64,000 nucleotides of DNA from a virus: the IMG/VR virus record IMGVR_UViG_3300036861_001106, positions 32,001 through 96,000 of that record; one strand, given 5' to 3'. A program made the translations under genes and the position numbers. Every line of letters starts with the position of its first letter. Within the stretch, counting starts at the first letter, position 1. The notes below the pieces were generated by a model. It did not search any database. It saw only the letters and a list, made by a program, of their open reading frames with translations, and was not told the DNA's origin. This document shows positions 52 through 60,037 of the stretch, piece by piece.

Positions 52-636
52 ATGACGGAGCCCAGGATCTTCACCTGCGAGGAGTGGGGTGCCCTCCCCG
101 TGCACCGGGCCTTTCCCACCAAGCCTGCGGTGGGCACCGTGATTCACCACACTGCGTCGCCGAATGCCACGCCGCTCCTGGGTCCTGAGGAGCTGCACCG
201 GTCCTTCAAGCTGGCTCGGGCCATCCAGCGGGACCACCTCGCGCGAAGGTGGGCGGACACCGGGCAGCACTTCCTGGTCAGCCGCGGTGGCATCATCCTG
301 GAGGGGCGCCATGGGAGCCTTGCCGCCGCACGCCGGGGGCGCTGCGTGCGTGGCTCCCACGCAGGCAACAACCTGGCGAACTCCCAGTGGTTCGGCATCG
401 AGACCGAGGGGCGCTACGACCAGGAGTTCCTCGTCACCGATGCACAGTGGCAGGCGCTGGTGACGCTGCATGCGTGGTTGGCCCACTGGGGTGACTTCGA
501 CACGGCGACTGTTCAACCACACAGTCACTTCAGGCCAACGGAGTGTCCTGGGCACCTCCGCGATCACCTTGGCCGGCTGCGGCAGGAGGCCCATGACCTG
601 AAGATGAGGCTCAGGTTCCCACAAGATAACCCTTGA
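52..636 (+). CDS. N-acetylmuramoyl-L-alanine amidase (Amidase_2/PGRP-like endolysin)
   Basis: VIHHTA, GQHFLV..G.I.EGR, GSHA, GIE, HSHFRPTECPG Zn-amidase motifs. Confidence 0.9.
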   Translation: MTEPRIFTCEEWGALPVHRAFPTKPAVGTVIHHTASPNATPLLGPEELHRSFKLARAIQRDHLARRWADTGQHFLVSRGGIILEGRHGSLAAARRGRCVRGSHAGNNLANSQWFGIETEGRYDQEFLVTDAQWQALVTLHAWLAHWGDFDTATVQPHSHFRPTECPGHLRDHLGRLRQEAHDLKMRLRFPQDNP

Positions 637-1151: not shown

Positions 1152-4100
1152 TTGCCCTACGCCAGGACCAGCGAGCTGCCAGAGGGTGTCAAGGGTGCCC
1201 TGCCGAAGCGGGGTCAACGCATCTTTCGCGCTGCGTTCAATGCCGCTCACCGCACCTACGGTGGCAATGAGGAGCGGGCCTTCAAAGTGGCCTGGGCGGC
1301 GGTGAAGCGCGTCTTCAAGAAGAAGGGTGGCAAGTGGGTCAAGGCCAGCCAGTCTGATCTGACCACCCAGCAGCTCCTCCTGGACACGCAGCGGCTCTAC
1401 CAGGAGCACTGGCGCCGCAACCCCGAGGCGCTGCCTGCCCAGCGCACGGTCAACGACCTGCTGGCGCAGGTGGCAGCCAACCCGACACAGGACTTGCGAC
1501 TCCTGCGGCAGCTTGAGGGGCTCGGTGTCCCGTACTTTGACTTCGAGGCGCTTGTGCAGTCATACGCGAATCCAATGCCGTGTGCGCCTCACACCGATGA
1601 CTTTCCCGGCTCCCTGGACCACCGCATCCGGCGGGTGTGCTGCGCCGTGCGGGATGAGGGCGACGAGTACCTGGGCGAGTACGGGTACGTGCTGGCAGTC
1701 TACCCCAACTTCGCCGTCTGCTGCTCCCTGGACGAGGGCGATGAGGACACTGACTACTGGAAGGTTGACTACACGTTCAACCCGACGACGTTTGAGGTGG
1801 CACTGGGCGACGCCCAGCCGGTCGAGGTCCTGACCGTCGTGGTGCCGCATGAGGGGGAGGCGATGGAGACACCAGAGCGCGAGGGCCTGAACATCGGCGG
1901 GACTCAGACCGTGGTCGACCAGGAGGCCAAGTTCAAGACCGACAACGGTCAGCAGTTCTCCCGAGGTGCCTACCTCATCATCGGCGACCCTGACCTCCCC
2001 TCGACCTGGAAGGTGCGCGTGGAGGAGACGCCGGGCAAGGTGACGGTGCCGCAGCTTGGGCGTGCCTACGCAGCCCTGACCAAGGGCTTTCGGGGCAACA
2101 AGGTTGCAGCCTCCGGCGGTGACAAGTCGGCGGCGCTGGGCAAGCTCAAGTCGCTCTACAAGTCGCACGACGCCGAGTGGCCCGGTGACAAGCAGAGCGT
2201 GGCGCCTGACCTCACGGGGGCCTTGAACCAGGACCCCCAGTGGACCACCACGCCCACCTGGCTGGCCCAGGGGCAGCCGCCGCCGGGCGGGGACGAGGAC
2301 CTCGTCCAGACCTGCGCGCTTGAGCTTGAGCAGGTGGAGGTGGACAAGCAGACGGGAGTCATGCACATTCGAGCCTGCCTCACCGTCGGGAACGTCCTGA
2401 ACGCCATGGGGGAGGTCTACCCGACGCAGGTGTGGGAGGACAACCTCCCCTTCTTGCAGACAGCCGCCGAGCAGGGGGCGCTCCTCGGCGAGTCCAACCA
2501 CCCACCGCCGGGTGAGTCATCCCTGGACCGCTCCTGCATCCTCTGGGATGAGGTGTGGCTTGAGGGTGACCGGCTGATGGGCGCTGGTCGCGTGCTGCCC
2601 ACGGTGCCCTCTGGGCAGAACCTGCAGATGCTCCTGCAGCACGATGCCAAGGTGGACGTCTCCTCCCGGGGCAAGGGCACGCGCAAGCAGGGCGACTGGG
2701 TCAACCCCACCACCGGCGAGCGGTACCAGGATGCGTTGGTGATCCAGCGTGGGTACCGCTGCCGCACATTCGACGCTGTCGGGTCCGGCGCCTCGCCGGG
2801 CGCGACCATCACCACGCACGAGATGGCGCAGCAGGCCGACCTTACTGCTGAGGAGCACGACATGAAAGAGATCGAAACCCTGTCGCAGCAGGTCCAGGCG
2901 CAGGCTGCGACCCTCGCGCAGATCACCGAGACGCTGGCGAAGCTTGCCGCACCCCCGCCCGCCCCGACACCCCCTGCGGCGGGCGCTGCCACCGCCGCGC
3001 TGGATGTCCCGGTTACCGCACCAGCCACAGCAGCACTGCAGCAGGCAGCCCCGGACTTCGTGGCTACCCTCACCGCGGTGGCTGCGCAGCAGGAGCGGAT
3101 GATGCCCCTCCTGCTGGAGGAGCGCAAGCGGCAGCTCCTGGAGCAGGCGCGCACGGAGCACAAGCTCCCGCAACAGTGGCTCAACTCCTACCGCAACATC
3201 CTCAACGAGGGGCAGTGCAAGTCCATCGCGGAGCTGGAGGCGCACTCCGAGCGCATGCTGCCGGCGGTGCTCTCGATGTACAAGGAGCGCCCGCAGTTGG
3301 CGCACGGCTTCCAGGTCCAGCAGGACCCTGGGGAGCGCCCTGGCCCGAAGACCCCCCGGCAGATGATTGACTTCCTGGTCAAGGACGTGGACGACACGGT
3401 CCTCTACGACCCACAGAGCTTCATCCGGCAGGATGATGAGACAGGTGCGCCGGTGCACGCACCCGACTCGGTGAAGACCCGGCGGCGCCAACTGCGGCAG
3501 ATCCTGCTGAACATCGCCCAGCACCAGGATGACAACTGGAATGGCCCTGCTGCGCTGACGGCGTTTGTGCGGCTCTACCAGGGCTACGACCCCATCCAGG
3601 TCAAGGATGCATGGATGGACCAGGCCTGCGCTGACTGCACCACCTCGGTGGCAGCCGGTGGCGCGCCCTCCAGCGCGCTGTTCATCTTCCCGCTGGTCCG
3701 GGCGGTCTACCCGCAGCTCATCGCGCCGGAGATCGCCTCTATCCAGCCGATGGACCGGCCTGACGGGCGCATCTTCTTCCTGAATGCGTTCCGGTGCCCA
3801 GTGCCGGGCATGGACGTGGTGGACCAGTCGGGGGCCACGATCTCCAACCGGATGTTCATGGACCGCAGCTCGTCCTTCAGCTCGTCCTTCGCGGATCGCG
3901 CGGCTGAGTGCGACGAGGCGGCGAAGATCCAGCTCCGGCTGGCCTCCGTGTCGGTGACGGCGACGACCAAGGCCCTCACCTCCATCAACACGATTGAGGA
4001 GCTGCAGGACCTGCGGGCCTACCATGGGCTGGACGTGAACACCGAGCTGATGTCAGCCCTCTCCCGGGAGATTGCCCTGGAGTGGAACCTCACCGTGCTC

Positions 4101-4646
4101 AACGAGATGGTCGCGGGCGCCACGGCCAGCGCACGCTTCTATGGCACCAACGCTCCCACTGGCTACACGCAGAAGGAGTGGGCGGAGTACCTGCCGCGCT
4201 ACATCGACGCGGTGAGCATGGACATCTTCTCCAAGCGCCACGGCAACGCGACGCACGTCATCGCCGGGCCGCAGGCCATCCTCCGGTTGGGCGCAGCCTA
4301 CCGGCAGCCGGTGCAGCCGACGGGGGTCAATCCGCAGGTCTACCCCGGCCTGGCCGTGACGCCCTGGCTGGCTGGCACCAGCGCTGACATCAAGGTCTAC
4401 CAGACGAGCTTCTGGACAGGGGTGAACCAGAACACCATCCTGGTCATCCGCCGGGGTGCCGACTGGTCGGACACGGGGTACGTGTTCGCCCCCTACATCG
4501 ACTACATCGCGCCCCTCCTGACGCTGCCGGACACCTTCACCCAGAAGCAGGGTGTGATGTCCCGTGCAGCGCACCGGGTGGTCGTGGGTGACACCATGGG
4601 CACCATCACCATCGTGCCGGGTGACACCGGCGTTGAGGTGCCGTAG
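1152..4646 (+). CDS. head polyprotein: ChaB domain + T4 gp21-like prohead protease + scaffold + T4 gp23-like major capsid protein
   Basis: N-terminal MPY..ELP..VK..LP..GQ.IF..AFN.A..AW.AVK (ChaB); GESNHP and VSSRG.G (gp21 protease); IASIQPMDRPDG.IF, ELQDL.A.HGLD, GYVFAPY (gp23). Confidence 0.85.
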   Translation: MPYARTSELPEGVKGALPKRGQRIFRAAFNAAHRTYGGNEERAFKVAWAAVKRVFKKKGGKWVKASQSDLTTQQLLLDTQRLYQEHWRRNPEALPAQRTVNDLLAQVAANPTQDLRLLRQLEGLGVPYFDFEALVQSYANPMPCAPHTDDFPGSLDHRIRRVCCAVRDEGDEYLGEYGYVLAVYPNFAVCCSLDEGDEDTDYWKVDYTFNPTTFEVALGDAQPVEVLTVVVPHEGEAMETPEREGLNIGGTQTVVDQEAKFKTDNGQQFSRGAYLIIGDPDLPSTWKVRVEETPGKVTVPQLGRAYAALTKGFRGNKVAASGGDKSAALGKLKSLYKSHDAEWPGDKQSVAPDLTGALNQDPQWTTTPTWLAQGQPPPGGDEDLVQTCALELEQVEVDKQTGVMHIRACLTVGNVLNAMGEVYPTQVWEDNLPFLQTAAEQGALLGESNHPPPGESSLDRSCILWDEVWLEGDRLMGAGRVLPTVPSGQNLQMLLQHDAKVDVSSRGKGTRKQGDWVNPTTGERYQDALVIQRGYRCRTFDAVGSGASPGATITTHEMAQQADLTAEEHDMKEIETLSQQVQAQAATLAQITETLAKLAAPPPAPTPPAAGAATAALDVPVTAPATAALQQAAPDFVATLTAVAAQQERMMPLLLEERKRQLLEQARTEHKLPQQWLNSYRNILNEGQCKSIAELEAHSERMLPAVLSMYKERPQLAHGFQVQQDPGERPGPKTPRQMIDFLVKDVDDTVLYDPQSFIRQDDETGAPVHAPDSVKTRRRQLRQILLNIAQHQDDNWNGPAALTAFVRLYQGYDPIQVKDAWMDQACADCTTSVAAGGAPSSALFIFPLVRAVYPQLIAPEIASIQPMDRPDGRIFFLNAFRCPVPGMDVVDQSGATISNRMFMDRSSSFSSSFADRAAECDEAAKIQLRLASVSVTATTKALTSINTIEELQDLRAYHGLDVNTELMSALSREIALEWNLTVLNEMVAGATASARFYGTNAPTGYTQKEWAEYLPRYIDAVSMDIFSKRHGNATHVIAGPQAILRLGAAYRQPVQPTGVNPQVYPGLAVTPWLAGTSADIKVYQTSFWTGVNQNTILVIRRGADWSDTGYVFAPYIDYIAPLLTLPDTFTQKQGVMSRAAHRVVVGDTMGTITIVPGDTGVEVP

Positions 4647-21295: not shown

Positions 21296-22269
21296 ATGGC
21301 CGCTACCTTTCTCGTGGAACCAGCGTAACGGAGCGAGCGGCACGGCGACAGACCTCGGATCAAGCGGAAATTTGGCTTCAAGAAGTTGGCCCCTCGCGTA
21401 GGAATGCGTGAGTGAAAACGGCGTGAATTGCGGGAAGCCTACAGCGAAGGCCATGGTAATCCGCAGCCAAGCTCGACAGGGCACTGGTTGTCGAGAAGGT
21501 TCAGAGACTAGAGGGTGAGTCCCAACAATAAGCCCTCCACGAGCGCGCCGCACCCAGATCGGGTGATGAGATAGTCCAAGCATCGGGGAAACCCGGTGAA
21601 CTAGAACTTCAAGACCACGGACACGACGGGGATTGGAGATTACGCCGCGAATCCGGTCTCAGCCGGCTCGAACTCAATGGAAGTCGTACTGCGGATGCAC
21701 TTCACAGGGTCTGCGGCCCCTCCAGCCTGAAAGGGCTGGTCGTGATGGCGTGAATTCGGGGAAGCCTACAGCGAAAGCCATGGTAATCCCGACCCAAGCT
21801 CTCCAGGAATGGTGAGAAGGGCTAGAGACCAGAGCAAGTAGACGAGACCCGTCGAACGCTCCACGAGCGCGCCACACCCCTCGGGGTGATGAGATGGTCC
21901 GACACTCCGTGGAAACGCGGAGAGCCTTGGATAAAGAGCCAAGGTGTAACTGGTGCCTTCAACCGCATCGCCGACTTCCGATTCTGGCAATCGACGGCGT
22001 TCTCGCCGTCCACCGGCTTGCAGGTCTTCTGGTCCGGCACGCAGGTCATCTACCTGCAGCCGACCACCGGCACGTCGTCCATCGCCACGTCGTCCATCCC
22101 GACGACCGACCCTGGCACGGCGAACGTCAGCGTGGGTGGCTCCCTGACCGGATGCCTGACGACATCTGGTTTTACGGACCACATCTACCTTCAGCTCAGG
22201 ACTGCGTCCAACGCTGCGGCAGGTGACACATCGCTCGGAACTTTCACGGGCAGCTACACTGAGAACTAA
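21296..22269 (+). CDS. spliced putative virion protein (~166 aa): exons 21296-21377, 21605-21710, 21956-22269, plus one extra base near codon 5
   Basis: AGGAGGT RBS; joined exons read MAATF/SWNQRNGASGTATDLGSSGNLA|NFKTTD..MHFTG|SFNRIADF..YTEN. Confidence 0.7.
21378..21604 (+). ncRNA. group I intron 1 (no internal ORF, 227 nt)
   Basis: P AATTGCGGGAA, Q AATCCGCAGC, R TTCAGAGACTA, S GAGATAGTCC; P1 GGCU/GGCC with U.G; P10 GAAGUU/AACUUC; terminal G. Confidence 0.9.
21711..21955 (+). ncRNA. group I intron 2 (no internal ORF, 245 nt)
   Basis: P AATTCGGGGAA, Q AATCCCGACC, R CTAGAGACCA, S GAGATGGTCC; P1 GGGU/GCCC; terminal G restores the frame. Confidence 0.85.
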
Positions 22270-22270
22270 G

Positions 22271-22465
22271 GTGCGTGCCACTGTCAGAATCCTGATCGCT
22301 GCCCTGGCCCTCTTTGCCAGCGCCTTCTGGCTCGCGCTCTCCGGCGTCATCTGGCTCGACTGCCCGTGGCTCGGTGCCCTGATGGGGGCCCTCGGGGGGC
22401 TCGCCTTTGGGGCGGCCCTCTGGCTGCTCGGGGTGCTCGACGAGGGGGCCAATGGCGCACACTGA
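22271..22465 (+). CDS. small two-TM membrane protein
   Basis: two hydrophobic segments. Confidence 0.5.
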   Translation: MRATVRILIAALALFASAFWLALSGVIWLDCPWLGALMGALGGLAFGAALWLLGVLDEGANGAH

Positions 22466-36074: not shown

Positions 36075-36565
36075 CACCAGGGCTCCGAGGTCCACTGATA
36101 CCGCCGGAGGTGCTCGGCGACCTCCGCGTCGGTGTCACTCCACTCCTTGACCATCTCGCGGCTCAGGGCGTGGAGGTAGGTCTCTGGGTTCTCTGTCACC
36201 TGCACCCTGGCTACCTGCGGACCTGCGACGGGGGCAGCCAGTGCCTCCTCCAGGGTGTGGAAGATCGCAAGCCCAAGCTCCTGTGCCAGGCCCAGCTCCT
36301 GGTCAGCCCCGGGCGACGGGGCCAGGTAGAGGAGGCCCTGACACTGCCGCACCCACGTCAGGGCCCACTGCAGCCAGCGGTGGTAGGGCACCTCCGTGCC
36401 CCGCCCCACGTTGTGCAGGTGCCAGAAGTGGCTGAGCAGGGGGCAGAAGGGCTCGTGCCCCGCCAGCAGGAGGGCAGTTGCAGCCTCCAGGCTACGAAGC
36501 ACGTTGCGGTGGACGGCCTCCGGGGTTGCCGCCGTGTACGGCGAGGCGATGTAGATCCGCATCAC
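36074..36565 (-). CDS. DUF1937/nucleoside deoxyribosyltransferase-like protein
   Basis: IYIASPY, PFCP, SPGADQE..A..LG. Confidence 0.75.
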   Translation of the reverse strand: MMRIYIASPYTAATPEAVHRNVLRSLEAATALLLAGHEPFCPLLSHFWHLHNVGRGTEVPYHRWLQWALTWVRQCQGLLYLAPSPGADQELGLAQELGLAIFHTLEEALAAPVAGPQVARVQVTENPETYLHALSREMVKEWSDTDAEVAEHLRRYQWTSEPW

Positions 36566-37068
36566 GTCCCTCCCTCGGGGCCAGGTGGTCCAATGGGTGG
36601 GGTGATCGCGGCGATCTCCGCCACCTTGGCGGCGACGTCGGCGGCCTTGACGGCGGCGTGCGCCGTGCGCTCGGCCAGCTCCGTCAGCGTGGTGGCCTGG
36701 ACGGCCGCCTTCACCTCCCCCTCGTCGCGGCCCAGGAGGCGCTCCGCCTGGGCAGTGCGCGCCAGCAGCTCGGCCAGCCGGCCGTTCACGACGATCCGCA
36801 TCTCGTTCAGCGCGGCGGCGTTCTCAGTGCCCTTGATCAGCGCCAGGACGGCGGCGATGGTGGGCGCCGTCACGGCCACGATGGTCGCGATGAGCTGCGA
36901 GTTGTCCTGCTCGGGGCGCAGGATGAGGACGACGACGATGGTGGCAAGGGTGACCATCGTGCCGCCGATGGCCAGCAGGAGGTACGGCCACTTTGGCGCT
37001 GGGACAAACTCCGGCAACACCTGCGTGCCCCCGGGGGCGAGTGGGACCTTGGTCATGGGTGGGGTCAT
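36562..37068 (-). CDS. two-TM membrane protein (holin-like)
   Basis: two TM helices followed by VNGRL..LL. Confidence 0.55.
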   Translation of the reverse strand: MTPPMTKVPLAPGGTQVLPEFVPAPKWPYLLLAIGGTMVTLATIVVVLILRPEQDNSQLIATIVAVTAPTIAAVLALIKGTENAAALNEMRIVVNGRLAELLARTAQAERLLGRDEGEVKAAVQATTLTELAERTAHAAVKAADVAAKVAEIAAITPPIGPPGPEGGT

Positions 37069-37143
37069 TCATTCCTCATTTCTCCTGGCCAGGAAGTTCA
37101 GTGGTTCTGGACTCCGTATTGCCTTTCCTTCCTTCTCGGGTCC

Positions 37144-37551
37144 TCATCGCTTGAACAAGATGATGGCGCTCACGGTGGCACTCATCAGGGCCAGCAAGCC
37201 CGTGATGATGACCGCCACCAGGTTCCACTTCCCCTTCGTCTCCTCGATTGACCGGATCTCCAACGCCTTCCGCACGTCAGTCAGCGTGGCGGTGAAGTCG
37301 GCGATGGTGCGCTCCATGAGCGTCACGCGAATCAGCAGTGGGGGCTGCCCATTGCCGTCGCGGATGATCTTGAGCACGGTGTCCAGGTTGCGGGTCAAGG
37401 ATTGCACGTCTCGGGTCAGGTCCTGCACGTCGCGCCGGATCTCCGCGACGCTCAGGTCCGTCGTTGTCAGGGCCGGGTTGACTGCCACCTGGACTGGCCG
37501 GGGCTCCGGGTTGTTGCCGGGCTCATTCGCCATGAGTGTCGCCGCGCTCAT
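37144..37551 (-). CDS. coiled-coil protein with C-terminal TM
   Basis: heptad RDVQDLT repeats, GNGQP, C-terminal hydrophobic helix. Confidence 0.6.
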   Translation of the reverse strand: MSAATLMANEPGNNPEPRPVQVAVNPALTTTDLSVAEIRRDVQDLTRDVQSLTRNLDTVLKIIRDGNGQPPLLIRVTLMERTIADFTATLTDVRKALEIRSIEETKGKWNLVAVIITGLLALMSATVSAIILFKR

Positions 37552-38047
37552 TGATCTTGTCTTCCTGATCGCGGCTCTTCCGCTCGACCTTCTCGCGCAT
37601 CTCCCTCAAGTTTGCTCGCAATGACTTTAGCTCCTCATAGAGTTGGGGCAACCCCTGCAGCACGGGGTCGCTGATCTGTCGGGTCACGAATGGGACCATG
37701 AACGCAACTGCCACCCAGGAGGTCACCGCCGCAAGCAGGTTGATTGCCACCTGCAGCCGGTACGCTGGCCACCAGAACGAGGCGGCTCGCATCAGGTGGG
37801 TCAGTCCGGCGGTGAAGATGAAGATCACGAAGCTCTGGGTGATCCGCTTGTCGAGGACGAGGGCGAACCCGTTGCGCCGGGAGGCCGCCGCAAGGATCAT
37901 GATTGGAATGGCGAGGTAGACCGTCACGATGGAGAAGTTGCTGACGATCGTGGCGTCAGCCAACCGGTCGGTCCACCCCCCGCCTGCGGCGGGAGACTCA
38001 AACGGCGTGGCGTCGAACAGCCAGTGAACGAATCCTATCACTCCCAC
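37523..38047 (-). CDS. stand-alone ethylene-receptor-like 3-TM sensor domain
   Basis: SNFSI..VYLAIP, FIFTAGLTHLM, WWPAY, AAVTSW; no kinase domain. Confidence 0.75.
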   Translation of the reverse strand: MGVIGFVHWLFDATPFESPAAGGGWTDRLADATIVSNFSIVTVYLAIPIMILAAASRRNGFALVLDKRITQSFVIFIFTAGLTHLMRAASFWWPAYRLQVAINLLAAVTSWVAVAFMVPFVTRQISDPVLQGLPQLYEELKSLRANLREMREKVERKSRDQEDKINERGDTHGE

Positions 38048-38484
38048 GTCTCTCCCCTCCCGCCAGCTTGCACGACTGGCTCGATGAACGCCCAGAAGAA
38101 GCGGCGCTCGGTCCTCATTGCAACCCCCACTTGCAGGCGTACCGGGAGGTAGTGCCCACCTTGCGTGATTGCCGACAGCGTCAGCTCCTGTCCCACGATT
38201 GGTGCATGTCCCGTTCGCTGGTAGGTCTCGATGCCTCGCAGGTGGGCGGCTCGGTGCTCCGGTGGGATGATCGTGCTGGCCAGGGGGAGCCCAAGTGCCT
38301 CCGCGCGCGACCAGCCAAAGGTCGCCTCGGCGGCTGTGTTCCACTCAATGATGCGTCCCTCCGGGTTGATGGCGATGAAGGGTGTGGGGCAGTCGTCCAT
38401 GATTGCCCGAAACACGCTCAGCGGCAGCGTGGGAGGGATGATGGCGGGCGCTGGCTGTAGCAGCCGACGGAAGAAGTCGATCAT
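38038..38484 (-). CDS. stand-alone PAS domain protein
   Basis: I..EGRIIEWN.AAE..FGW...EALG..L..IIP. Confidence 0.9.
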   Translation of the reverse strand: MIDFFRRLLQPAPAIIPPTLPLSVFRAIMDDCPTPFIAINPEGRIIEWNTAAEATFGWSRAEALGLPLASTIIPPEHRAAHLRGIETYQRTGHAPIVGQELTLSAITQGGHYLPVRLQVGVAMRTERRFFWAFIEPVVQAGGRGETWE

Positions 38485-38840
38485 GGGTGACCTGCGTCCT
38501 CGCTGACCTTGGTCTTCATTGTCTCCTGAATCAACGCCTCCAGCTTTGCGATCCGCTCGTTGGCGATGTAGAGGTCAGTCTTGACGGCGCTGAGGTTGGA
38601 GTTCGTCAGCTCGTGGATCTTGTCCAGCTTCTCGTCGGAGCGCGCTGCAATCGCCTTCGTGGTGTCCTTCAGGTCCTGCACCTTCTCGTCGACGTTGTCA
38701 ACGGTGCGCGCGGTCACCGCCTGGAGCGTCTGGATCCGCGCGCTAGTCCTCCAGGCGGTCACGAGGTTGGTCAGCACGAGCCCAACCGCAGCGATGATGG
38801 TGAGAATCTCCTGACTGGTCATCGGGCACAGCACCTCCAA
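38481..38840 (-). CDS. N-terminal TM + coiled-coil protein
   Basis: one TM; KLDKIHELTNSNL. Confidence 0.6.
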   Translation of the reverse strand: MEVLCPMTSQEILTIIAAVGLVLTNLVTAWRTSARIQTLQAVTARTVDNVDEKVQDLKDTTKAIAARSDEKLDKIHELTNSNLSAVKTDLYIANERIAKLEALIQETMKTKVSEDAGHP

Positions 38841-38930
38841 ATTGGGCGTTAGCTGCTTCTTGCAGCTCGTTGTCCCCGGTGACGCATTCAGGCAGTCGCA
38901 ATGCGTCAGTAGCCGTCGTCGGGTTTGAAG

Positions 38931-40958
38931 TTACTCTCTTGTTCTCTCCTCCGCCTGCCTCTTCCAGTGCTCCATTCTGGCAACTGCGATCTCACAGTAC
39001 CTGGGGTCGCCCGGCGGCTCCCCCTGCTCGATGCCCAGGAAGCGGAACCCCTCCAGGACCGCCGCGCAGCCAATCGAGCCTGAGCCGCAGAATGGATCGA
39101 TGAGGAGCCCCCCTGGCGGGGTGATCAACTTGCACAACCATCTGCACAGCGCAATACTCTTTACAGTGGGATGGTTGTTCTTGACCTTGACCGGGGCCCA
39201 CCTAGGTTCAGCCTCCAAGCCCCCTGGATTGACGCGGTTCAGGATGGCATGGTCGAGTTCGTCGAGGCCCGCCTCTTTTTCGGAGCGGCTCGCCTTCGCC
39301 TGGTATTTCCACAGTATCGGGTCGATCTCGCCATCCCCATCGTTTCCACGGGTGGCGGCGGCAATGGCAAGCTGAACAGAGCCACACCACCGTCTCAACT
39401 TTTGAATAGTCGGAATGATGCCGATGCTCTCCAGGTCTTCCGCAATCGGTGCAAGGCTTTGGATCAGGATTTGCTCTTTGAGCGCGCAGATAGAATCCTG
39501 TCCAGGAATTAACCCCCGGCAAAGGTCTGGCTTTTTCTCGGCAATAGCTTGAGCAATAGTTGTTCCGCATCTCTCGCACAGGCTTGCCACAGACCAGACA
39601 TGATGGGCGATCTGTTCGGGAAGCGATGCCGGAGCACTTAGCAGAACAGAAGATTCGCTCGTTGGATTCATATTCCCAGAATCGCTTCCCGCACTGGCGA
39701 CAGAAATGCTCTCGCTTTGGTTTCTGACCTCGACTTCGGCAGGTTGATGTCTTTGAGCACGAGTTTGAACAGAAACGCCTGCTTGGTTTCGTTGGAGCAA
39801 AGAGGTTACCGCACCATTCACAGGGTCGCAACTTGTCGGTTGATGACATAAAAAGCACTTTCTCGCGTCTTGGAAGTTCGGAAAGAATCGCGAGGGCGAC
39901 TTGAGCAACTTGGACGCCTTGCAGCCGTCCTCATCCAGCTTGCGCACCGGGCAACCCGGCACACATGCCCAGAGGTCCACCACCTCCAGCCCCTCCGCGT
40001 CGCCGTAGCCCTCAAAGGTGTCGTGCCAGTCCTCGTGCTCCTTGTCGTCCTGATTGTAGAACGGGTTCTTCTTGCCTCCCTGAGTCACGGTCGTCGGGCA
40101 GCCCTTGACCTTCTGCGTGCCGACAAGCACACAGTGTTCGCTGTGGGTGAGCAAGAGATTCGGAGCGTGTCGACCCTTCTTCCCCCGGCGCGCCTGCACC
40201 TCCTCCGGCGGCATGTCGCGGATCTTGAAGGTGTCCTCGCCAAGGTAGCCGTTAGTCCGCCCATAGCTCCCTGTCTTGTGCCAGCCGGGGACATCGTCGC
40301 TGGTGCGACGCACCTCGCAGGCACCGACGTTCAGGGCACCCACACCCCACTTGAGCAGGTTGTCGGCGATTGACCCCTTGAAGGGCTTCTGAACCAACCA
40401 CCAGCACTCAACTGCGGGCTTGGTAGCGTTACCCCAGCCCAGCCACTGCTGACCCTCTTCGGAGGTGGGCTCCAGCACCTTGCTCTGCAGACGCTCACGG
40501 TCGGGGTTACTGGCGAAGGCGTTGCCCCTGATGTCCTGGTTGGTCCAGGGGCGCTCCCCTACCGCGACTGGCTCGGCACCAACCTTGCGATCCACGTCGA
40601 TGGCCACGTTGCGATTCTTGGGAAAGCCCTGACCGTGGATGTGGTAGATGCACTCCTGCACGAAGAAGCCAGCATCCTCCAGTGCCCAGGCAGTCCAGTG
40701 GCTAGTCCGGGGAAAGGCCCACACCAGGCCGTAGGCACCTGGCTTGAGCACCCGGTGTGCCTCCCGCATGACCTCGCTGAGCCATGCCACCCACTGATCT
40801 CGGCCGCCCTTGTTGCCGTCCCAGGCGCGCCCCATGAACGAGGCGCCCCCCGGGGGGTCGGTGCAGAGCGCATCGATGCTGCTGGAGGGCAGCTTCCGCA
40901 ACACCTCAAGAGAGTCACCGAGGATGACCTTGCCCCAGCTTCCCACGCGCCAGATCAT
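38931..40958 (-). CDS. DNA N6A/N4C methyltransferase (beta class) with ~185-aa insertion
   Basis: GDSLE.L, TDPP, GFPK, KPA.E, SRFF, KAS..E, NNHPTVK, DPFCGSGS. Confidence 0.85.
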   Translation of the reverse strand: MIWRVGSWGKVILGDSLEVLRKLPSSSIDALCTDPPGGASFMGRAWDGNKGGRDQWVAWLSEVMREAHRVLKPGAYGLVWAFPRTSHWTAWALEDAGFFVQECIYHIHGQGFPKNRNVAIDVDRKVGAEPVAVGERPWTNQDIRGNAFASNPDRERLQSKVLEPTSEEGQQWLGWGNATKPAVECWWLVQKPFKGSIADNLLKWGVGALNVGACEVRRTSDDVPGWHKTGSYGRTNGYLGEDTFKIRDMPPEEVQARRGKKGRHAPNLLLTHSEHCVLVGTQKVKGCPTTVTQGGKKNPFYNQDDKEHEDWHDTFEGYGDAEGLEVVDLWACVPGCPVRKLDEDGCKASKLLKSPSRFFPNFQDARKCFLCHQPTSCDPVNGAVTSLLQRNQAGVSVQTRAQRHQPAEVEVRNQSESISVASAGSDSGNMNPTSESSVLLSAPASLPEQIAHHVWSVASLCERCGTTIAQAIAEKKPDLCRGLIPGQDSICALKEQILIQSLAPIAEDLESIGIIPTIQKLRRWCGSVQLAIAAATRGNDGDGEIDPILWKYQAKASRSEKEAGLDELDHAILNRVNPGGLEAEPRWAPVKVKNNHPTVKSIALCRWLCKLITPPGGLLIDPFCGSGSIGCAAVLEGFRFLGIEQGEPPGDPRYCEIAVARMEHWKRQAEERTRE
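39208..39849 (-). CDS. Zn-finger HNH endonuclease nested in the methyltransferase, -1 frame
   Basis: three CxxCG..CSxxC units, then CTDCG..RHHSDYSK..WLCSACHCRRH. Confidence 0.8.
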   Translation of the reverse strand: MSSTDKLRPCEWCGNLFAPTKPSRRFCSNSCSKTSTCRSRGQKPKREHFCRQCGKRFWEYESNERIFCSAKCSGIASRTDRPSCLVCGKPVREMRNNYCSSYCREKARPLPGVNSWTGFYLRAQRANPDPKPCTDCGRPGEHRHHSDYSKVETVVWLCSACHCRRHPWKRWGWRDRPDTVEIPGEGEPLRKRGGPRRTRPCHPEPRQSRGLGG

Positions 40959-41170
40959 CGTCCCCCCTCCGTCGGCAGCGGCGCGGGGCCTGGCGCGTTG
41001 GCCGGGCCGTTGGGCACGAGCACGGTGGGCGGGGCCGGCGCAGCCACGAACGGCAGGTACACGCCGACGTAGAGGATCACGAACAGGATGAGGATGACGA
41101 GGACGAGCACCTCAAACACCCGCAGGTGCCACCACTCACCGTTGTCACTCCCAGCCACCCAGCGTGGCAT
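40955..41170 (-). CDS. small membrane protein
   Basis: one TM, Pro-rich tail. Confidence 0.5.
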   Translation of the reverse strand: MPRWVAGSDNGEWWHLRVFEVLVLVILILFVILYVGVYLPFVAAPAPPTVLVPNGPANAPGPAPLPTEGGR

Positions 41171-41331
41171 TATTTTTCCCCCTCCTCCTTCTCGTCCCCC
41201 CACACACCCCAGTCCTGCAGCAGCTCGCGCGCCAGGACGGCCACGAAGGCCACCACCAGCAGGAAGGCTGCCCCCAGGATGATGTTGGCGGTGGTCAGGT
41301 GCCCCGCGAGCCACGTGAGTGCGAGTTCCAT
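41170..41331 (-). CDS. small membrane protein (53 aa, leaderless, not in ORF track)
   Basis: MELALTWLAGH..; ATG 6 nt after a -10 box. Confidence 0.55.
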   Translation of the reverse strand: MELALTWLAGHLTTANIILGAAFLLVVAFVAVLARELLQDWGVWGDEKEEGEK

Positions 41332-41337
41332 GGCTTG

Positions 41338-41366
41338 ATTCTACCGGGGAGATACGTCCTTGTCAA
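41338..41366 (-). promoter_or_regulatory. sigma70-type leaderless promoter
   Basis: TTGACA-17-TAGAAT-6 nt-ATG. Confidence 0.7.
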
Positions 41367-41413: not shown

Positions 41414-41728
41414 TCAGGGGACAGGCGGGGTTGGCGGCAGCGCCGCCTCCAGCTTGTCAGCAGCGGCCGTCAGGTCGCCCATGACAGCCTGCAGCGCAGC
41501 CACCTGCGGGGTGAAGTCGCCACCCCCACCGTCACCAGCCTGCAGCGCAGCCACGACGGCGTCGACGTCGGTGCCGACGCGCGTGACGGCCGCCTGCACG
41601 TCGCTGATGGCAGCAGCAAGGTCAGCCAGGGTTGCCATTAGTTTCTCACCTCCCAGCCGGGCCAGCGTGGCCTCGTAAAACGCGGCGAACGCAAGCGCCG
41701 CAGTCAGCAGCAGGACGAACAGTTCCAT
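41414..41728 (-). CDS. hypothetical helical protein
   Basis: ORF with GC3 bias. Confidence 0.5.
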   Translation of the reverse strand: MELFVLLLTAALAFAAFYEATLARLGGEKLMATLADLAAAISDVQAAVTRVGTDVDAVVAALQAGDGGGGDFTPQVAALQAVMGDLTAAADKLEAALPPTPPVP

Positions 41729-41920
41729 CAGAGGAACACGAACAGGAGTGTCGCGATGAGGCCGACGATGCCGAGCACGATCGCCGGGATCACCATCCCC
41801 AGAAAGTGTAGGCTGAGCAGCCCGGTGAAGACCCCCATGGCGACTTTGCCAATGCTCATCTCTCTCACCTCCCTGAATCTCGGGTTTCTGAAGTTCATAG
41901 GCGTGGGCAGTGTCTAGGGA

Positions 41921-42226
41921 CTAAAAATCGTCTGCGTGTGCCGTAGCGCCTCCCACACGCGCTTCGTTGACGTTCCGTAAGCCCTTCGGCTGTTCAATCA
42001 GACGATTGCGCTCCCAAACCTTGGGAAGTCCTCGGCGTTCGAGGTGGTGAATCACGTAGACTTCCTCACCACTCTCCGTAGCTTCGGCGAGGGTGCAGCT
42101 CTTGCAGCGGTGCTGCACGCTCTTGCCAGTAGCTCGCTTCTTGGGCGCGTAGGTGATGAAGACCAGCCGCTTGTCTCGGCAGGCAGGGCACACCTTCTCC
42201 TGGCGCTCGTAGTTCGCGATCGTCAC
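41921..42226 (-). CDS. Zn-ribbon hypothetical protein
   Basis: CPAC..CKSC. Confidence 0.5.
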   Translation of the reverse strand: MTIANYERQEKVCPACRDKRLVFITYAPKKRATGKSVQHRCKSCTLAEATESGEEVYVIHHLERRGLPKVWERNRLIEQPKGLRNVNEARVGGATAHADDF

Positions 42227-45200
42227 TGCCCGTCCTCCGAATCAATCATATCAGTTTTCAAGTCCGGCTTCCACGCCCTCCACCGCCGCAGCCGCCGCGC
42301 CTCCTGCGCGTAGAGGCGCCCGTCCGGCGCCTGCCAGCACCGCACGAGCCACGTGTTGCCCAGCCCCAGCCCCGGGCCATCGAGCAGCCTGGCCGTTTGG
42401 TGCCGCTTCCAGGCCTTGGCGCTGAAGCCCACGTCGACGCTGCCGCTCTCGTCCGTCAGGGTGCAGCGCAGCTTGAGCCGGGGCTCCCCTGGCGCCGGTG
42501 GTTGGCTGCCGTACTTCTTCGCCTGCACCGCCAGGTCGATCAGGCTGCGCTCCGTCACGCGGCCCAACACCGTCACGCTGTCGTCGCGCACCTCCCGCCA
42601 CCGGATCGGCTGCAGGCCAAGCTGCTCACGGTACGCCCGCTCCGGCGGGGTGAGGGGGCGCAACGGGTACCAGCAGGCGAGGTGCTGCAGCACGTCACTG
42701 TCCAGCCCGGCCGGCGTCACCACCGCTGCCAGGGGCTCGCGCACGGTCTTGGGCAGCGCCGCCAGCAGCTCCTGCCAGCCCCGCGGGGCCAGCCGCAGGA
42801 CCTTGGCCGCGGACTTCGCGGCGCACCCCCGGAGGCTCACGAGCCCCCCGCGCACGCGCCAGGGGTCCACCGGGTCGTGGGTGAAGTCGGCGGCGGGGTC
42901 GGTGGGGTTGAGGAGGCTGACCCGCCCCCCGCGCTCCAGGAACTCGCGCAGCAGGGCGAACCGGCGCTCGTCGGGGTCCAGGTTGCCGACGTGGCGGCAC
43001 AGGGCAGCGGTGAAGAGCCCGGGGTGGTGCACCTTGAGGTAGCCCGTCCAGGCACCTAGGTAGGCGTACTGGCAAGCGTGCGCCTCGCAGAAGAGATAAT
43101 TGGCAGCCTTCTTCACCTGAAGGAACGCCTCAATGACCTGCGCCACCGGCACGCCAGCCTGGTACCAGCCGAGACCGAGGGGCTTGCGGTACGCCTCAAT
43201 GGCGTCTGCCCCACCGCTCTTGCTGGCCAGCTTGCGGATCTTGTGGACGTCCTCGATCGGCAGCCCGGCGAGCTGGGCCAGGGCCATCGCCTGTTCCTGA
43301 TAGACGACCGTGCCGTAGGTCAGGCCCAGGATCGCCTGCAGCTCAGGGATCAGCGTCGGCATCTCCTCGCGCCCCCACTTGCGCGCCACGAAGCGCTTGA
43401 CCCCGCCGGACTGCAGGGGGCCCGGGCGCGCCAGTGCGGACACGGCAGTGAACTCCTCGAAGTTGGCGGGCTGCAGCTCCCGCAGGATGTTGCCGGCGGC
43501 GCGTCCCTGGAGTTGGAAGATCCCCAGGTTCTGCCCCTGCGCCAGCATTGCCAGCACCGCCGGGTCCTCCAGCGGCAGGGCGTAGAGCCACTCGGGGGAC
43601 TTGCCCAGGGCCTGCAGTGTCTCCGCCACTGCGGTCAGGGTGCGACTGCCGAGGAGGTCGATCTTCAGCAGCCCCTGCGCGGCGGCGGTCGCCATGTCCA
43701 CCTGCGCCGTGCGCTCCTTCCCCGGGCGTGCTCCCACCGCCACGACCTCCGCCAGCGGGCGGTCGTCCAGGAGAGCCCCCCCGGCGTGGACGCTGAACTG
43801 CCGCACCTGCCCCTCCAGTTGGGCGGCGATGGCGAGCTGCGGGCAGTAGGTCAGCAGCTTCTGGGCCTTCTCGCTGGTCTCGAAGAGCCGCGCCAGCACC
43901 CCGTAGTCGTGGAGCCCCGCGCCCTGATCCTCCCCCTCCGGCACCAGCGTGGCGGCGTGGTGCATGACCTTCTCCGGCAGGTCGTAGGCCTTGCCCACGT
44001 CCAGCAGGGCCTGCCGGGCGCCGAAGCGTGAGAGGGTCGCCACGTGCGCCACGTGCGCCACGCCGTACTTGGCTTCGAGATACTCGAAGGCTTCATGCCG
44101 GCGGTCGTGCTGGAGATCCAGGTCAATATCAGGCAAGTCAGCCCTTGTTTGGTCTAGGAACCTCTCGAAAGGCAGGTTGTGCTTGATCGGGTCCACCACC
44201 GTGACGCCGAGGCAGTGGAGGAGGAGGGACCCACCGGCGCTGCCGCGGGGGACGATGAGGATGTGGCGGGCCCGCATCTCCCGCACGAGGTCAGCCACGA
44301 CGAGGAAGTAGTCAGCGAATTGCTTCTCACAGACCACCGTCAGCTCCCGCTCCAGGCGCTGGTGGTAGGTGCCAACGACGGCGAGGCTCTTGTCCTCGGT
44401 GATCCTCTTCAAGCCCTGCCAGGCCAGCTTCCGCAGCATCTCCACCGCCGACCCGAACCCTGCGGGCACCGTGAACCGAACCCCCGATCCCTTCGGGCAC
44501 TCCGCCACGCACCGCTCCGCCAGCGCCACGCTGCGCTCGATCGCCGCCACCAACTCGATGGTGGGGACGCCGGGCAGCACCGCCTGGCAGCGCGCGAGGA
44601 TCTCTTCACCGCTGCATCTATGGTGGTAGGTTGGCAGCTTCACGCTGCGGTGGGGGTCGTTGACGCGCTGGCCGAGGTTCACCGCCAGGAGGGTGTCCTG
44701 GGCCGCCATGTCCTCCGGGCGCGGGGCGTGGGCGTCGCTGGTGACCACCAGCGGGATCTCAAGCTGCCGCGCCAGCCGCCACAGCACCGGGCAGGCAGCC
44801 TCGCTGATGCCGAGCCCGGGGCAGGGGATGATCTCCACCAGGAAGTGCTCGACGTGCGCCTGCATCCAGGCGAGCCACGCCGCTGCCTCGTCCACCCGGC
44901 CAAGGTTGATGAGCTGCGAGGGGTGCCCGATCACGCAGCCGGAGAGGACGAGCATGTCCCGCTCGCAGTGGCGGGCCAGCATCTGCCGGTCAACCAGCGG
45001 CTTGCGGTGGTAGTGCGTGAACGACTCGCTGACGAGCGCCAGCAGGTTGCGGTACCCCACCTGGGTCTGGGGGATGAGGGTGAGGTGCGCCCGCTTCAGG
45101 GCCTCCTGCTCCCCCTTGCGCCGGTCGCCGCCCTTGTCCTGGCCGAGCAGGGTCACGTCCTCGACGTAGTAGGCCTCTACGCCGAGGAGTGGGCGCAGAC

Positions 45201-45372
45201 CGGCCTTCGTGGCCTCCTGCTGGAAGTCGTGGTGCCCCGCAATCGTTCCGTGATCGCAGCAGGCGACGTGTGACTGCTGTAGCTCCAGCACGCGGGCAGC
45301 ATGCTGGCTTGGAGTTCCAAACCCATCAAGCGCAGAGTAGGTTGAGTGGCAGTGGCAGTCAACGAATCTCAT
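42223..45372 (-). CDS. dnaE: DNA polymerase III alpha subunit (family C)
   Basis: HCHSTYSALDG PHP domain, DHG, RGSAGGS, PDIDLD, HAGG, KIDLLG, RPGP. Confidence 0.95.
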   Translation of the reverse strand: MRFVDCHCHSTYSALDGFGTPSQHAARVLELQQSHVACCDHGTIAGHHDFQQEATKAGLRPLLGVEAYYVEDVTLLGQDKGGDRRKGEQEALKRAHLTLIPQTQVGYRNLLALVSESFTHYHRKPLVDRQMLARHCERDMLVLSGCVIGHPSQLINLGRVDEAAAWLAWMQAHVEHFLVEIIPCPGLGISEAACPVLWRLARQLEIPLVVTSDAHAPRPEDMAAQDTLLAVNLGQRVNDPHRSVKLPTYHHRCSGEEILARCQAVLPGVPTIELVAAIERSVALAERCVAECPKGSGVRFTVPAGFGSAVEMLRKLAWQGLKRITEDKSLAVVGTYHQRLERELTVVCEKQFADYFLVVADLVREMRARHILIVPRGSAGGSLLLHCLGVTVVDPIKHNLPFERFLDQTRADLPDIDLDLQHDRRHEAFEYLEAKYGVAHVAHVATLSRFGARQALLDVGKAYDLPEKVMHHAATLVPEGEDQGAGLHDYGVLARLFETSEKAQKLLTYCPQLAIAAQLEGQVRQFSVHAGGALLDDRPLAEVVAVGARPGKERTAQVDMATAAAQGLLKIDLLGSRTLTAVAETLQALGKSPEWLYALPLEDPAVLAMLAQGQNLGIFQLQGRAAGNILRELQPANFEEFTAVSALARPGPLQSGGVKRFVARKWGREEMPTLIPELQAILGLTYGTVVYQEQAMALAQLAGLPIEDVHKIRKLASKSGGADAIEAYRKPLGLGWYQAGVPVAQVIEAFLQVKKAANYLFCEAHACQYAYLGAWTGYLKVHHPGLFTAALCRHVGNLDPDERRFALLREFLERGGRVSLLNPTDPAADFTHDPVDPWRVRGGLVSLRGCAAKSAAKVLRLAPRGWQELLAALPKTVREPLAAVVTPAGLDSDVLQHLACWYPLRPLTPPERAYREQLGLQPIRWREVRDDSVTVLGRVTERSLIDLAVQAKKYGSQPPAPGEPRLKLRCTLTDESGSVDVGFSAKAWKRHQTARLLDGPGLGLGNTWLVRCWQAPDGRLYAQEARRLRRWRAWKPDLKTDMIDSEDGQ

Positions 45373-45782
45373 CGGTGCCGGACTCCCCACTCACGCTCGA
45401 AGAGGCGACGGATGCGCGGGGACTGCAGGTCAGCGAAGGACCAGACCCTGCGGTGGCAGTAGTTGCAGCGCACTGGCATCTCCTCCTCGGGGACCTGCAC
45501 CATGCCCTCGAACTCGGGGTAGAACGGCAGTGCGCCCATCTTTCGGCACGGGTCGCAGCGCCCATCTACCATGGGGCTCTCTTCAAAGCACCGCGCGCAG
45601 GTGAAATCCTCGTCCTCGTCCAGCTCGCAGTCACACCGTTCGCAGTGCGTGTTGGCGTAGCGCGTCTCGTCGAGGGGCTCGTGACAGCTATCGCAGAGGC
45701 AGACGCCGCCTGGACCTGTGATTCGTGCCTGGTGGCAGCACTCGCAGATGATGGAGCCATCGGTCAGCCGGTCAGCGATCAT
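45369..45782 (-). CDS. Cys-rich Zn-finger protein
   Basis: multiple CxxC. Confidence 0.55.
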   Translation of the reverse strand: MIADRLTDGSIICECCHQARITGPGGVCLCDSCHEPLDETRYANTHCERCDCELDEDEDFTCARCFEESPMVDGRCDPCRKMGALPFYPEFEGMVQVPEEEMPVRCNYCHRRVWSFADLQSPRIRRLFEREWGVRHR

Positions 45783-59365: not shown

Positions 59366-60037
59366 CTAGGCCAGCTTCAGGACCGGCCACTTCTTGCGCT
59401 TCAGAAAGCCGAGTGCGCCGAACCCCAGCAGCCCCAGCGAGCAGGGCTCGGGGACCGGGTTAGGTAGGCAGTCGCCCTTGTCGTAGCGGAACTGTGCCAT
59501 GGCGAAGTCCACGTCGGAGTGCGCCACGACCTTCGAGAACAGCGCGCCGTCGTCCACCGAGGCGAACAGCCGTGCACCCGCCGCGCCATCCACGGGGCGC
59601 GTGATGCTGCCCAGCAGCACGTCACCGGCGTCGTAGAAGTCCGCCGTGATGTCATGCACCGCGAACGGGTTGGGCTCCGCCTCGAAGCCGAAGATGCTCG
59701 TCGGGGAGCTGAGGAGCATCGTGACCGAGGTGGCTCCCTTGGTCCACAGGACCGCGGGGGTGGCGCTCTCGCTGTCCGGGGGGCTGCTCCAGGTCGCCCA
59801 GCCGCCGCCCGGGACCGTCCGCTTCTGCATCAAGGAAGAAAACGAGACGGTCTCCGTGCCGTCCGTGATCGAGCCGACGTCAGTGAAGTTGGGCAACCCA
59901 CTGAAGTCGATCTTCGTGGTGACGAAGGTGTACAGCACGGACGGCGAGGAGATGTCCTCAAAGGTGGCGTGCGCCGGGCGGGGGCACGCCGCGCAGGTCA
60001 GCAGCAGCGACAGGGCGACCAACAGCTTGTGCTTCAT
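59366..60037 (-). CDS. PEP-CTERM sorting domain protein
   Basis: signal peptide ending AHA; C-terminal VPEPCSLGLLGFGALGFLKRKK. Confidence 0.9.
   Translation of the reverse strand: MKHKLLVALSLLLTCAACPRPAHATFEDISSPSVLYTFVTTKIDFSGLPNFTDVGSITDGTETVSFSSLMQKRTVPGGGWATWSSPPDSESATPAVLWTKGATSVTMLLSSPTSIFGFEAEPNPFAVHDITADFYDAGDVLLGSITRPVDGAAGARLFASVDDGALFSKVVAHSDVDFAMAQFRYDKGDCLPNPVPEPCSLGLLGFGALGFLKRKKWPVLKLA

Follow-up and report, generated by a model that had tools for sequence, protein, structure and literature searches.

What might an ethylene-receptor-type sensor domain do in a phage when no kinase is attached to it? To our knowledge, the ETR1-type membrane domain has been described almost exclusively at the input end of sensor kinases from plants and bacteria. 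We found it as a free-standing protein in a 64,000-nucleotide stretch of DNA (the window), bases 32001-96000 of the 109,530-bp IMG/VR virus record IMGVR_UViG_3300036861_001106, which represents an uncultured phage, has terminal repeats and is rated complete. The gene, here called g3, is the third of five consecutive minus-strand genes (g1 to g5) at 36562-38840, preceded by a gene for a lone PAS domain (g2) and followed by one for a phage-specific tail-anchored protein (g4). The ETR1-type domain is stand-alone and phage-borne in at least three cases, its Asp25/Lys91 pair is systematically altered and it is tied to g4; a literature search found nothing on a stand-alone phage-borne ETR1-type domain. 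The five-gene block looks like a membrane or lysis-control module and not like a phosphorylation signalling pathway. Our preferred interpretation, to which we give a probability of roughly 0.4, is that its products form a coiled-coil-linked inner-membrane complex that governs permeability or the timing of lysis and to which a PAS input has been added.

A stand-alone ETR1-type domain in a five-gene block

All five open reading frames (ORFs) exist on the minus strand, in the order of transmembrane (TM) and coiled-coil proteins that a preliminary description of the sequence had proposed. They are tightly packed and have phage-typical codon bias (G+C at third codon positions, 0.77-0.91). The first gene, g1 (38481-38822), encodes a 113-aa bitopic protein with an N-terminal TM segment at about residues 6-24, counted from its ATG, and a helical tail; this ATG is preceded by GGAGG, and the end at 38840 given previously is an upstream TTG. 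The product of g2 (38038-38484) is a soluble stand-alone PAS domain of the FixL type (148 aa). The ETR1_N-type protein g3 (37523-38041; 172 aa) has three TM segments and a cytoplasmic heptad helix at residues 131-167, and its correct start is the GTG at 38041, which makes its N-terminus collinear with those of all homologues. It is followed by g4 (37144-37551, or to 37533 when read from the second ATG), a tail-anchored protein of 129-135 aa with an N-terminal coiled coil and a C-terminal TM segment, and by g5 (36562-37068), a protein of 168 aa (164 from Met5) with two TM segments and an Ala-rich helical tail. Hydropathy gave one TM segment in g1, three in g3, one at the C-terminus of g4 and two in g5.

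The genes overlap by 4 nt between g1 and g2 (ATGA), so that g1 is translationally coupled to the PAS gene, by 4 nt between g2 and g3, with GTGA holding both the GTG start and the stop of the PAS gene, and by 11 or 29 nt between g3 and g4. A 75-nt gap separates g4 from g5, and g5 in turn shares 4 nt with the gene after it. The tail of g3 (residues 125-152) and g4 (residues 32-59) have near-perfect a/d heptad periodicity that none of 200 shuffled sequences matched. The signal in g1 was weaker to moderate (reached by 13 of 200 shuffles), and heptad periodicity in g5 was not significant in the shuffle test. We found no paralogy among the five proteins or the small membrane proteins of the phage. 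Matches of g1 to PHROGs were weak and confined to families of unknown function, and g5 resembled only clusters of hypothetical phage proteins. The statement that no kinase accompanies the block extends to the whole 109,530-bp phage for the HATPase_c, HisKA, Response_reg and GGDEF models, none of which matched while control genomes were positive; other output domains were not searched.

The identity of g3 is clear. It matched ETR1_N (PF25487) with an E value of 8.1e-16 and a score of 58.5 bits, where the cut-off is 27 (the genome search gave 61.1 bits), and its AlphaFold2 (AF2) model, with a pLDDT of 93.2, comprises a short N-terminal helix, TM helices at 25-54, 65-87 and 94-123 and the long helix at 131-167. 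From the positive charges in loop 1 and the tail we infer an N-out topology. Searches with this model against BFVD and PDB gave no significant fold match, the 'Holin' fold matches in BFVD having E values of 0.27 or worse. By ETR1 numbering, Asp25 is Asn35 in g3, Tyr32 is Tyr42, Cys65 is Ala78, His69 is His82 and Lys91 is Asn101, and Gly20 replaces the N-terminal Cys of the ETR1_N 'CGGW' motif. Thus, the residues had been read correctly from the outset: Asn for Asp and Ala for the copper-binding Cys, with Tyr and His retained. Of the two Cu(I) ligands only His82 is kept, and of the seven residues on which ethylene binding by ETR1 depends, g3 has five (Tyr, Ile, Pro, Ile and His).

An exhaustive HMMER search returned 2,174 relatives of g3, of which the eight best were all short (165-192 aa), with long sensor proteins following. 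Residue statistics were taken over the top 150 relatives, among them 116 fused forms and 17 short proteins that group with g3. The fused homologues keep Asp25 (112/116), Cys65 (113/116), His69 (114/116) and Lys91 (104/116). Among the 17 short proteins, 15 have Asn at Asp25, none has Lys at Lys91 and 11 retain Cys65; all 17 carry a charged helical tail of 37-73 residues. A quick maximum-likelihood tree of the ETR1_N domain, built from few columns and poorly resolved within each side, separated all 114 long forms from g3 and 18 other short, long-branched rows by a branch with an SH-aLRT of 92. In ETR1, Cys65 and His69 hold Cu(I), while Asp25 pairs with Lys91 in signal output and is required both for copper binding and for high-affinity binding of ethylene (PMC10266040). 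On these residue statistics, the tree and the ETR1 mutant literature, we assign g3 to a distinct, divergent stand-alone ETR1_N subfamily with a changed output-coupling pair (Asp25/Lys91), in which, by its sequence, the copper/ethylene site has additionally been lost in this phage.

It is accordingly very improbable that g3 is a still working copper-dependent receptor for ethylene or another small ligand. The five retained binding residues would favour such a receptor, as would the occurrence of Asn at Asp25 as a rare natural variant of lower affinity (PMC10266040). However, the copper ligand Cys65 is Ala and the second family Cys is Gly in g3, and in ETR1 copper binding is lost on mutation of either Asp25 or Cys65/His69 (PMC10266040).

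Nor is g3 a decaying piece of a kinase. The preliminary description had allowed that the lone PAS and the lone three-TM domain might be decaying fragments of one host kinase, but the PAS-then-ETR1_N order is the reverse of kinase architecture, the ORFs of g2 and g3 are intact and translationally coupled, with a pLDDT of 93 for the g3 model, and the branch that holds g3 contains only stand-alone proteins, separate from all the fused homologues.

A conserved g3-g4 pair and an added PAS gene

The block as a whole is not conserved. The sole related phage fragment found, a 1,654-bp metagenome contig (L003), carries the C-terminus of the same DNA methyltransferase (MTase) that lies upstream of g1 in the window, then directly a g3 homologue (165 aa) overlapping a g4 homologue, and then an unrelated gene. 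Both family cysteines are present in the g3 homologue, which shares 43% identity with g3 over residues 1-170; identity between the two g4 proteins is 68%. In DNA alignments, the MTase and g4 segments match at 68-69%, and g1 and the PAS gene have no counterpart. Conservation is thus read from this one short fragment and from one inferred contig of 1,320 bp, from which a g3-like protein (P0002, 45% identity) and a g4-like protein (P0158, 71% identity) both come and which likely holds a third g3-g4 pair. Because MTase is followed directly by g3 in L003, the alignments indicate that g3 and g4 are the conserved core and that g1 and the PAS gene are a lineage-specific addition of about 800 bp. Since the cluster is not conserved as a unit while L003 keeps MTase, g3 and g4 in order, g3 is an established phage or stand-alone gene and not a freshly captured host input, as had been supposed for both sensor genes; of the two, only the PAS gene looks cell-derived.

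The junction at which g1 and the PAS gene are present relative to L003, from the stop of the MTase gene to the start of g1, holds an inverted repeat of 8 bp (GACGCATT ... AATGCGTC; 38870-38905, minus strand) with an 11-nt loop and no T run, which could form an RNA structure.

Among 2.9 million IMG/VR contigs, motif scans turned up a single further stand-alone ETR1_N gene, in a phage (L002) in which it overlaps a small gene for a TM and helical protein. No relatives of g3 or of the PAS protein were found in 50,697 GenBank phage records, and single-protein IMG/VR scans with g3, PAS and DnaE gave no matches. The motif scans also picked up two contigs of 80 kb and 245 kb (L019:1811-1854, minus strand, IMGVR_UViG_3300045107_000039; L020:1149-1192, plus strand, IMGVR_UViG_3300045256_000050) that share one identical 390-codon open frame, measured from stop to stop, for a histidine kinase with a canonical ETR1_N domain in which Asp, Cys, His and Lys are kept.

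These data also bear on whether g1 to g5 are simply unrelated accessory genes packed together with no joint function. The absence of g1, PAS and g5 from L003, the lack of paralogy among the five and the occurrence of ETR1_N and g4-like genes each alone in other phages are all in keeping with such packing. Against it stand the four consecutive start/stop overlaps, the recurrence of the g3-g4 pair and the matching heptad segments in both conserved partners, and we regard it as improbable.

The added gene g2 matched Pfam PAS (PF00989) at 1.7e-14 and NCBIfam FixL at 3.7e-12. Its best PDB sequence matches were the FixL heme domains (3.3e-11), followed by DosP/EcDOS, at 28-29% identity. The AF2 model (pLDDT 81.8) superposes on FixL with root-mean-square deviations (rmsd) of 1.1-1.9 Å; the leading PDB fold matches were all heme-PAS proteins (FixL, FG214 and EcDOS/DosP), with FixL 1d06 at an E value of 1.1e-10 and an rmsd of 1.1 Å over 113 columns. 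Both sensor domains are therefore real and stand-alone, as first described. In the HMMER alignment, His81 of g2 aligns with the proximal heme histidine (BjFixL His200), which is also kept in four close PAS homologues, and manual mapping on this alignment places Tyr88, Ile96, Leu117 and Val119 at FixL Tyr207, Ile215, Leu236 and Ile238. Heme binding by g2 is thus plausible from its residues. Whether it senses heme or O2 is uncertain because g2 lacks the residues with which FixL binds propionate and O2 (Arg206, His214 and Arg220), and FixL-like O2 discrimination is unlikely.

One close homologue, 65% identical to g2 over 57 residues, is the start of a cellular-type TM-coiled-coil-PAS protein, and by this similarity the PAS gene is the only one of the block that looks cell-derived. 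We considered whether g1 and g2 together are the split N-terminus of a TM-coiled-coil-PAS kinase; this was unsupported, as g1 has no similarity to the N-terminus of that protein.

The same homologue is relevant to a second suggestion of the preliminary description, that g3 and the PAS protein act as dominant-negative decoys, forming mixed dimers with host ETR1_N-PAS hybrid kinases and silencing them. ETR1_N and PAS are both dimerising modules, and three metagenome proteins from DNA of similar G+C (L005, L007 and L008) have the architecture that such a target would need, with ETR1_N, a helical linker, PAS domains and HisKA-HATPase-REC. The 65% identity over 57 residues to a cellular-type protein also counts in favour of decoys. 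A decoy would be expected to track its target, however, and g3 is only 28-30% identical to kinase-borne ETR1_N domains, lies on the all-stand-alone side of the tree and has altered Asp25 and Lys91. Moreover, its conserved partner is the phage-specific g4 and not PAS, and no host kinase could be named as the target. We consider decoys as doubtful as an assembly of unrelated genes.

A possible role in membrane permeability and lysis timing

The partner protein g4 belongs to a family of at least 29 small proteins with the invariant motif IIRDGNGQxPLxxRVxxxE and a C-terminal TM segment, whose members also occur in unrelated phages without ETR1_N. In a complete 134-kb phage (L010), a g4-like gene overlaps the start of a downstream endolysin-like gene (endolysin PHROGs, 7.5e-8; Hydrolase_2, 4.7e-5, below cut-off). 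Genes of the papain family (Peptidase_C1) follow the g4-like gene at a distance of a few genes in L010 (6643-7509, plus strand; E 2.3e-7) and in L011 (6978-7913, plus strand; E 4e-3); no Peptidase_C1 gene was found in the phage studied here. One g4-family member had a weak 'hemolysin' PHROG match (E 0.0035). In an ESM Atlas language-model search, g4 fell among phage clusters, with an XhlA cluster at rank 12.

With its N-terminal coiled coil and C-terminal TM segment, g4 has XhlA-type architecture, and the two-TM g5 comes next; a neighbouring endolysin is seen only in L010, a distant relative. Holins of the XhlA/gp24.1 type carry a C-terminal TM segment and work together with a two-TM holin (PMC6316719). 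The likeness of g4 to XhlA is one of architecture only: identity with XhlA (PF10779) was rejected, as neither g4 nor any of 15 family members matched the XhlA hidden Markov model (HMM) at E values up to 1. Weak matches of g4 in Xanthomonas jumbo phages (E 6e-3, beside a head-tail connector gene) were judged to be coiled-coil noise. The early description of the neighbouring genes as holin-like draws on their architecture and on the one endolysin-adjacent g4 relative, and does not extend to membership of a holin family.

We propose a mechanism in two layers. In the conserved core, g3 and g4 would pair through their four-heptad zippers on the cytoplasmic side and so form an inner-membrane complex, in which g3 would be a structural or regulatory subunit. 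In the layer added in this lineage, the TM protein g1 would be coupled to the PAS protein as a later add-on input, and the phage-type two-TM protein g5 would follow g4. By the positive-inside rule, the helical parts of all four membrane proteins would lie in the cytoplasm together with the PAS protein. The pair g3 and g4, with g5, would then control the permeability of the host inner membrane and time lysis in the manner of a holin and antiholin, g4 and g5 taking the places of XhlA (C-terminal TM) and XhlB (two-TM) in a two-holin arrangement, and PAS would feed in a redox or gas signal. A 2026 report describes rice ethylene receptors as cation channels that do not depend on Cys65 (PMC13261662), and by analogy a pore or permeability role of the ETR1-type fold is conceivable.

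Support for this proposal comes first from the adjacency and overlap of g3 and g4 both here and in L003. The heptads of both proteins, the likely third pair on the 1,320-bp contig, the overlap of the ETR1_N gene with a TM-helical gene in L002 and the lack of kinase and receiver models in the genome count in its favour as well. The link to lysis is circumstantial and draws on the L010 relative beside an endolysin-like gene, on the XhlA/XhlB-like order of g4 and g5 and on the endolysin of this phage. That endolysin (52-636, plus strand), an amidase-type enzyme matching phrog_1493 at 3e-20, lies within the structural module, has no TM segment and has no membrane protein as either neighbour; its holin should therefore be encoded elsewhere in the phage. 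We rejected the argument that the block is the holin by elimination, as other small TM ORFs are present in the genome.

Several observations weigh against the proposal. The block sits in an operon of replication, methylation and nucleotide genes behind a sigma-70-like promoter, 36 kb from the endolysin, and no block protein matched holin, spanin or XhlA models in Pfam, PHROGs or NCBIfam. The other small TM ORFs include 22223-22465 (plus strand), an 80-aa frame with two strong TM segments that is an alternative holin candidate, as well as 41170-41331 and 41728-41898. Neither g1, PAS nor g5 is conserved in L003, where a different gene occupies the g5 position; a g4-like gene occurs without ETR1_N (G002) and ETR1_N without a g4-like gene (G001). 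The replacement of Arg206, His214 and Arg220 of FixL by Thr87, Pro95 and Leu101 in g2 (manual mapping) likewise makes heme or O2 sensing by the PAS input uncertain.

Alternatively, the five might be membrane proteins expressed early that serve to exclude superinfecting phages or remodel the host envelope and take no part in lysis, with PAS tuning them to host physiology. Proteins with such functions are typically small phage membrane proteins of no known family, the genes around the block are of early or middle type with a sigma-70-like promoter ahead of them, and the block has no holin-family match. The position of the L010 g4 relative directly upstream of an endolysin-like gene is at odds with this account, and no data tie any of the five proteins to the blocking of DNA entry. 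We regard exclusion or remodelling as unlikely, though less so than decoys.

The cysteines kept in L003 suggest another possibility, that the lineage carries a gas- or redox-gated membrane switch whose sensor has been swapped, with a copper-type site in L003 and a heme-PAS made of g1 and g2 here. With both family cysteines and the histidine still in place, the L003 g3 protein might detect ethylene or a different small ligand directly within the membrane. The phage studied here would have lost both cysteines and acquired a membrane-tethered FixL-type heme-PAS, and in either case the signal would pass through the coiled coils to g4, and to g5 where present, and so set the timing of permeabilisation and lysis. 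Such a swap seems to us somewhat less probable than decoys; if true, the ethylene-receptor fold would for the first time be seen in use by a virus, with a kinase-free output.

If instead the block is a permeability or lysis switch as we propose, it would give the ETR1-type fold a kinase-independent output, in agreement with the cation report for the rice receptors (PMC13261662), and would provide the first functional lead for the g4 (IIRDGNGQxPL) phage family. The phage would, in addition, read the redox or gas status of its host through a FixL-like PAS domain.

Genome setting and comparison with known systems

The phage has a G+C content of about 65%. Megablast of 15 kb found no near relative among GenBank phages, and its DnaE (42223-45390, minus strand) is only about 30% identical to actinophage DnaE. 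Plus-strand structural genes occupy approximately 1-33 kb of the window, and a leftward gene run extends from about 33.7 kb onward, in which DnaE is followed by the MTase (38931-40958, minus strand), g1 to g5, a nucleoside deoxyribosyltransferase-like gene and a pfkB kinase. A sigma-70-like promoter, recognised by consensus match only (41338..41366, minus strand; TTGACA-17-TAGAAT, 11/12), probably heads a leftward operon in which small TM genes, the MTase, g1 to g5 and the downstream metabolic genes would be co-transcribed.

Three small membrane-protein genes lie near this promoter on the minus strand, upstream of the MTase, at 41170-41331 (53 aa, one TM segment), 41414-41728 (104 aa, a TM segment and a helical part) and 41728-41898 (56 aa, one TM segment), and continue the membrane-protein theme of the operon. 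A Cys-rich 216-aa ORF (39208-39858, minus strand) lies in another frame inside the MTase gene, in a stretch of lower G+C. In the structural module, a single 1,164-aa ORF (1152-4646, plus strand) matches the head maturation protease phrog_207 at residues 391-650 and the major head protein phrog_138 at residues 918-1140, and looks like a protease-capsid fusion.

A PEP-CTERM sorting signal (59393-59458, minus strand; 25.5 bits, above cut-off) ends a 328-codon frame. The PEP-CTERM/exosortase system is the marker on which a diderm assignment rests, and because this gene is present it points to a diderm host with exosortase. Two GTDB genome scans, with the g4 and the g3 alignments, gave no matches and no host clue.

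We compared the block with four kinds of known system. Like the two-component holins XhlA/XhlB of PBSX and gp24.1/gp26 of SPP1, it has a protein with a C-terminal TM segment (g4) followed by a two-TM protein (g5), and the L010 relative of g4 stands beside an endolysin-like gene. Unlike in those systems, the host is probably diderm, the endolysin is 36 kb away and 0/15 g4-family members match the XhlA model. The heme-PAS O2 sensors FixL and EcDOS (DosP) are the best sequence and fold matches of g2, which keeps the proximal His, Tyr207 and hydrophobic distal residues and may by this resemblance bind heme, whereas it has no kinase or phosphodiesterase output and has Thr, Pro and Leu for Arg206, His214 and Arg220. 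Like the short LOV/PAS proteins, g2 consists of one PAS domain extended briefly at both termini and carries no effector domain, but it is FixL-like rather than flavin-type, lacks the LOV Cys motif, is phage-encoded and is translationally coupled to membrane proteins. Finally, g3 resembles the ethylene-binding domain of ETR1 and the bacterial ETR1_N kinases in its three-TM domain, with a clear HMM match, in the helical linker after TM3 and in keeping the equivalents of Tyr32, Ile35, Pro36, Ile62 and His69. It differs from them in standing alone, without GAF, PAS or kinase output, in its changes of Asp25 to Asn, Cys65 to Ala and Lys91 to Asn, and in being phage-encoded and paired with a phage tail-anchored protein.

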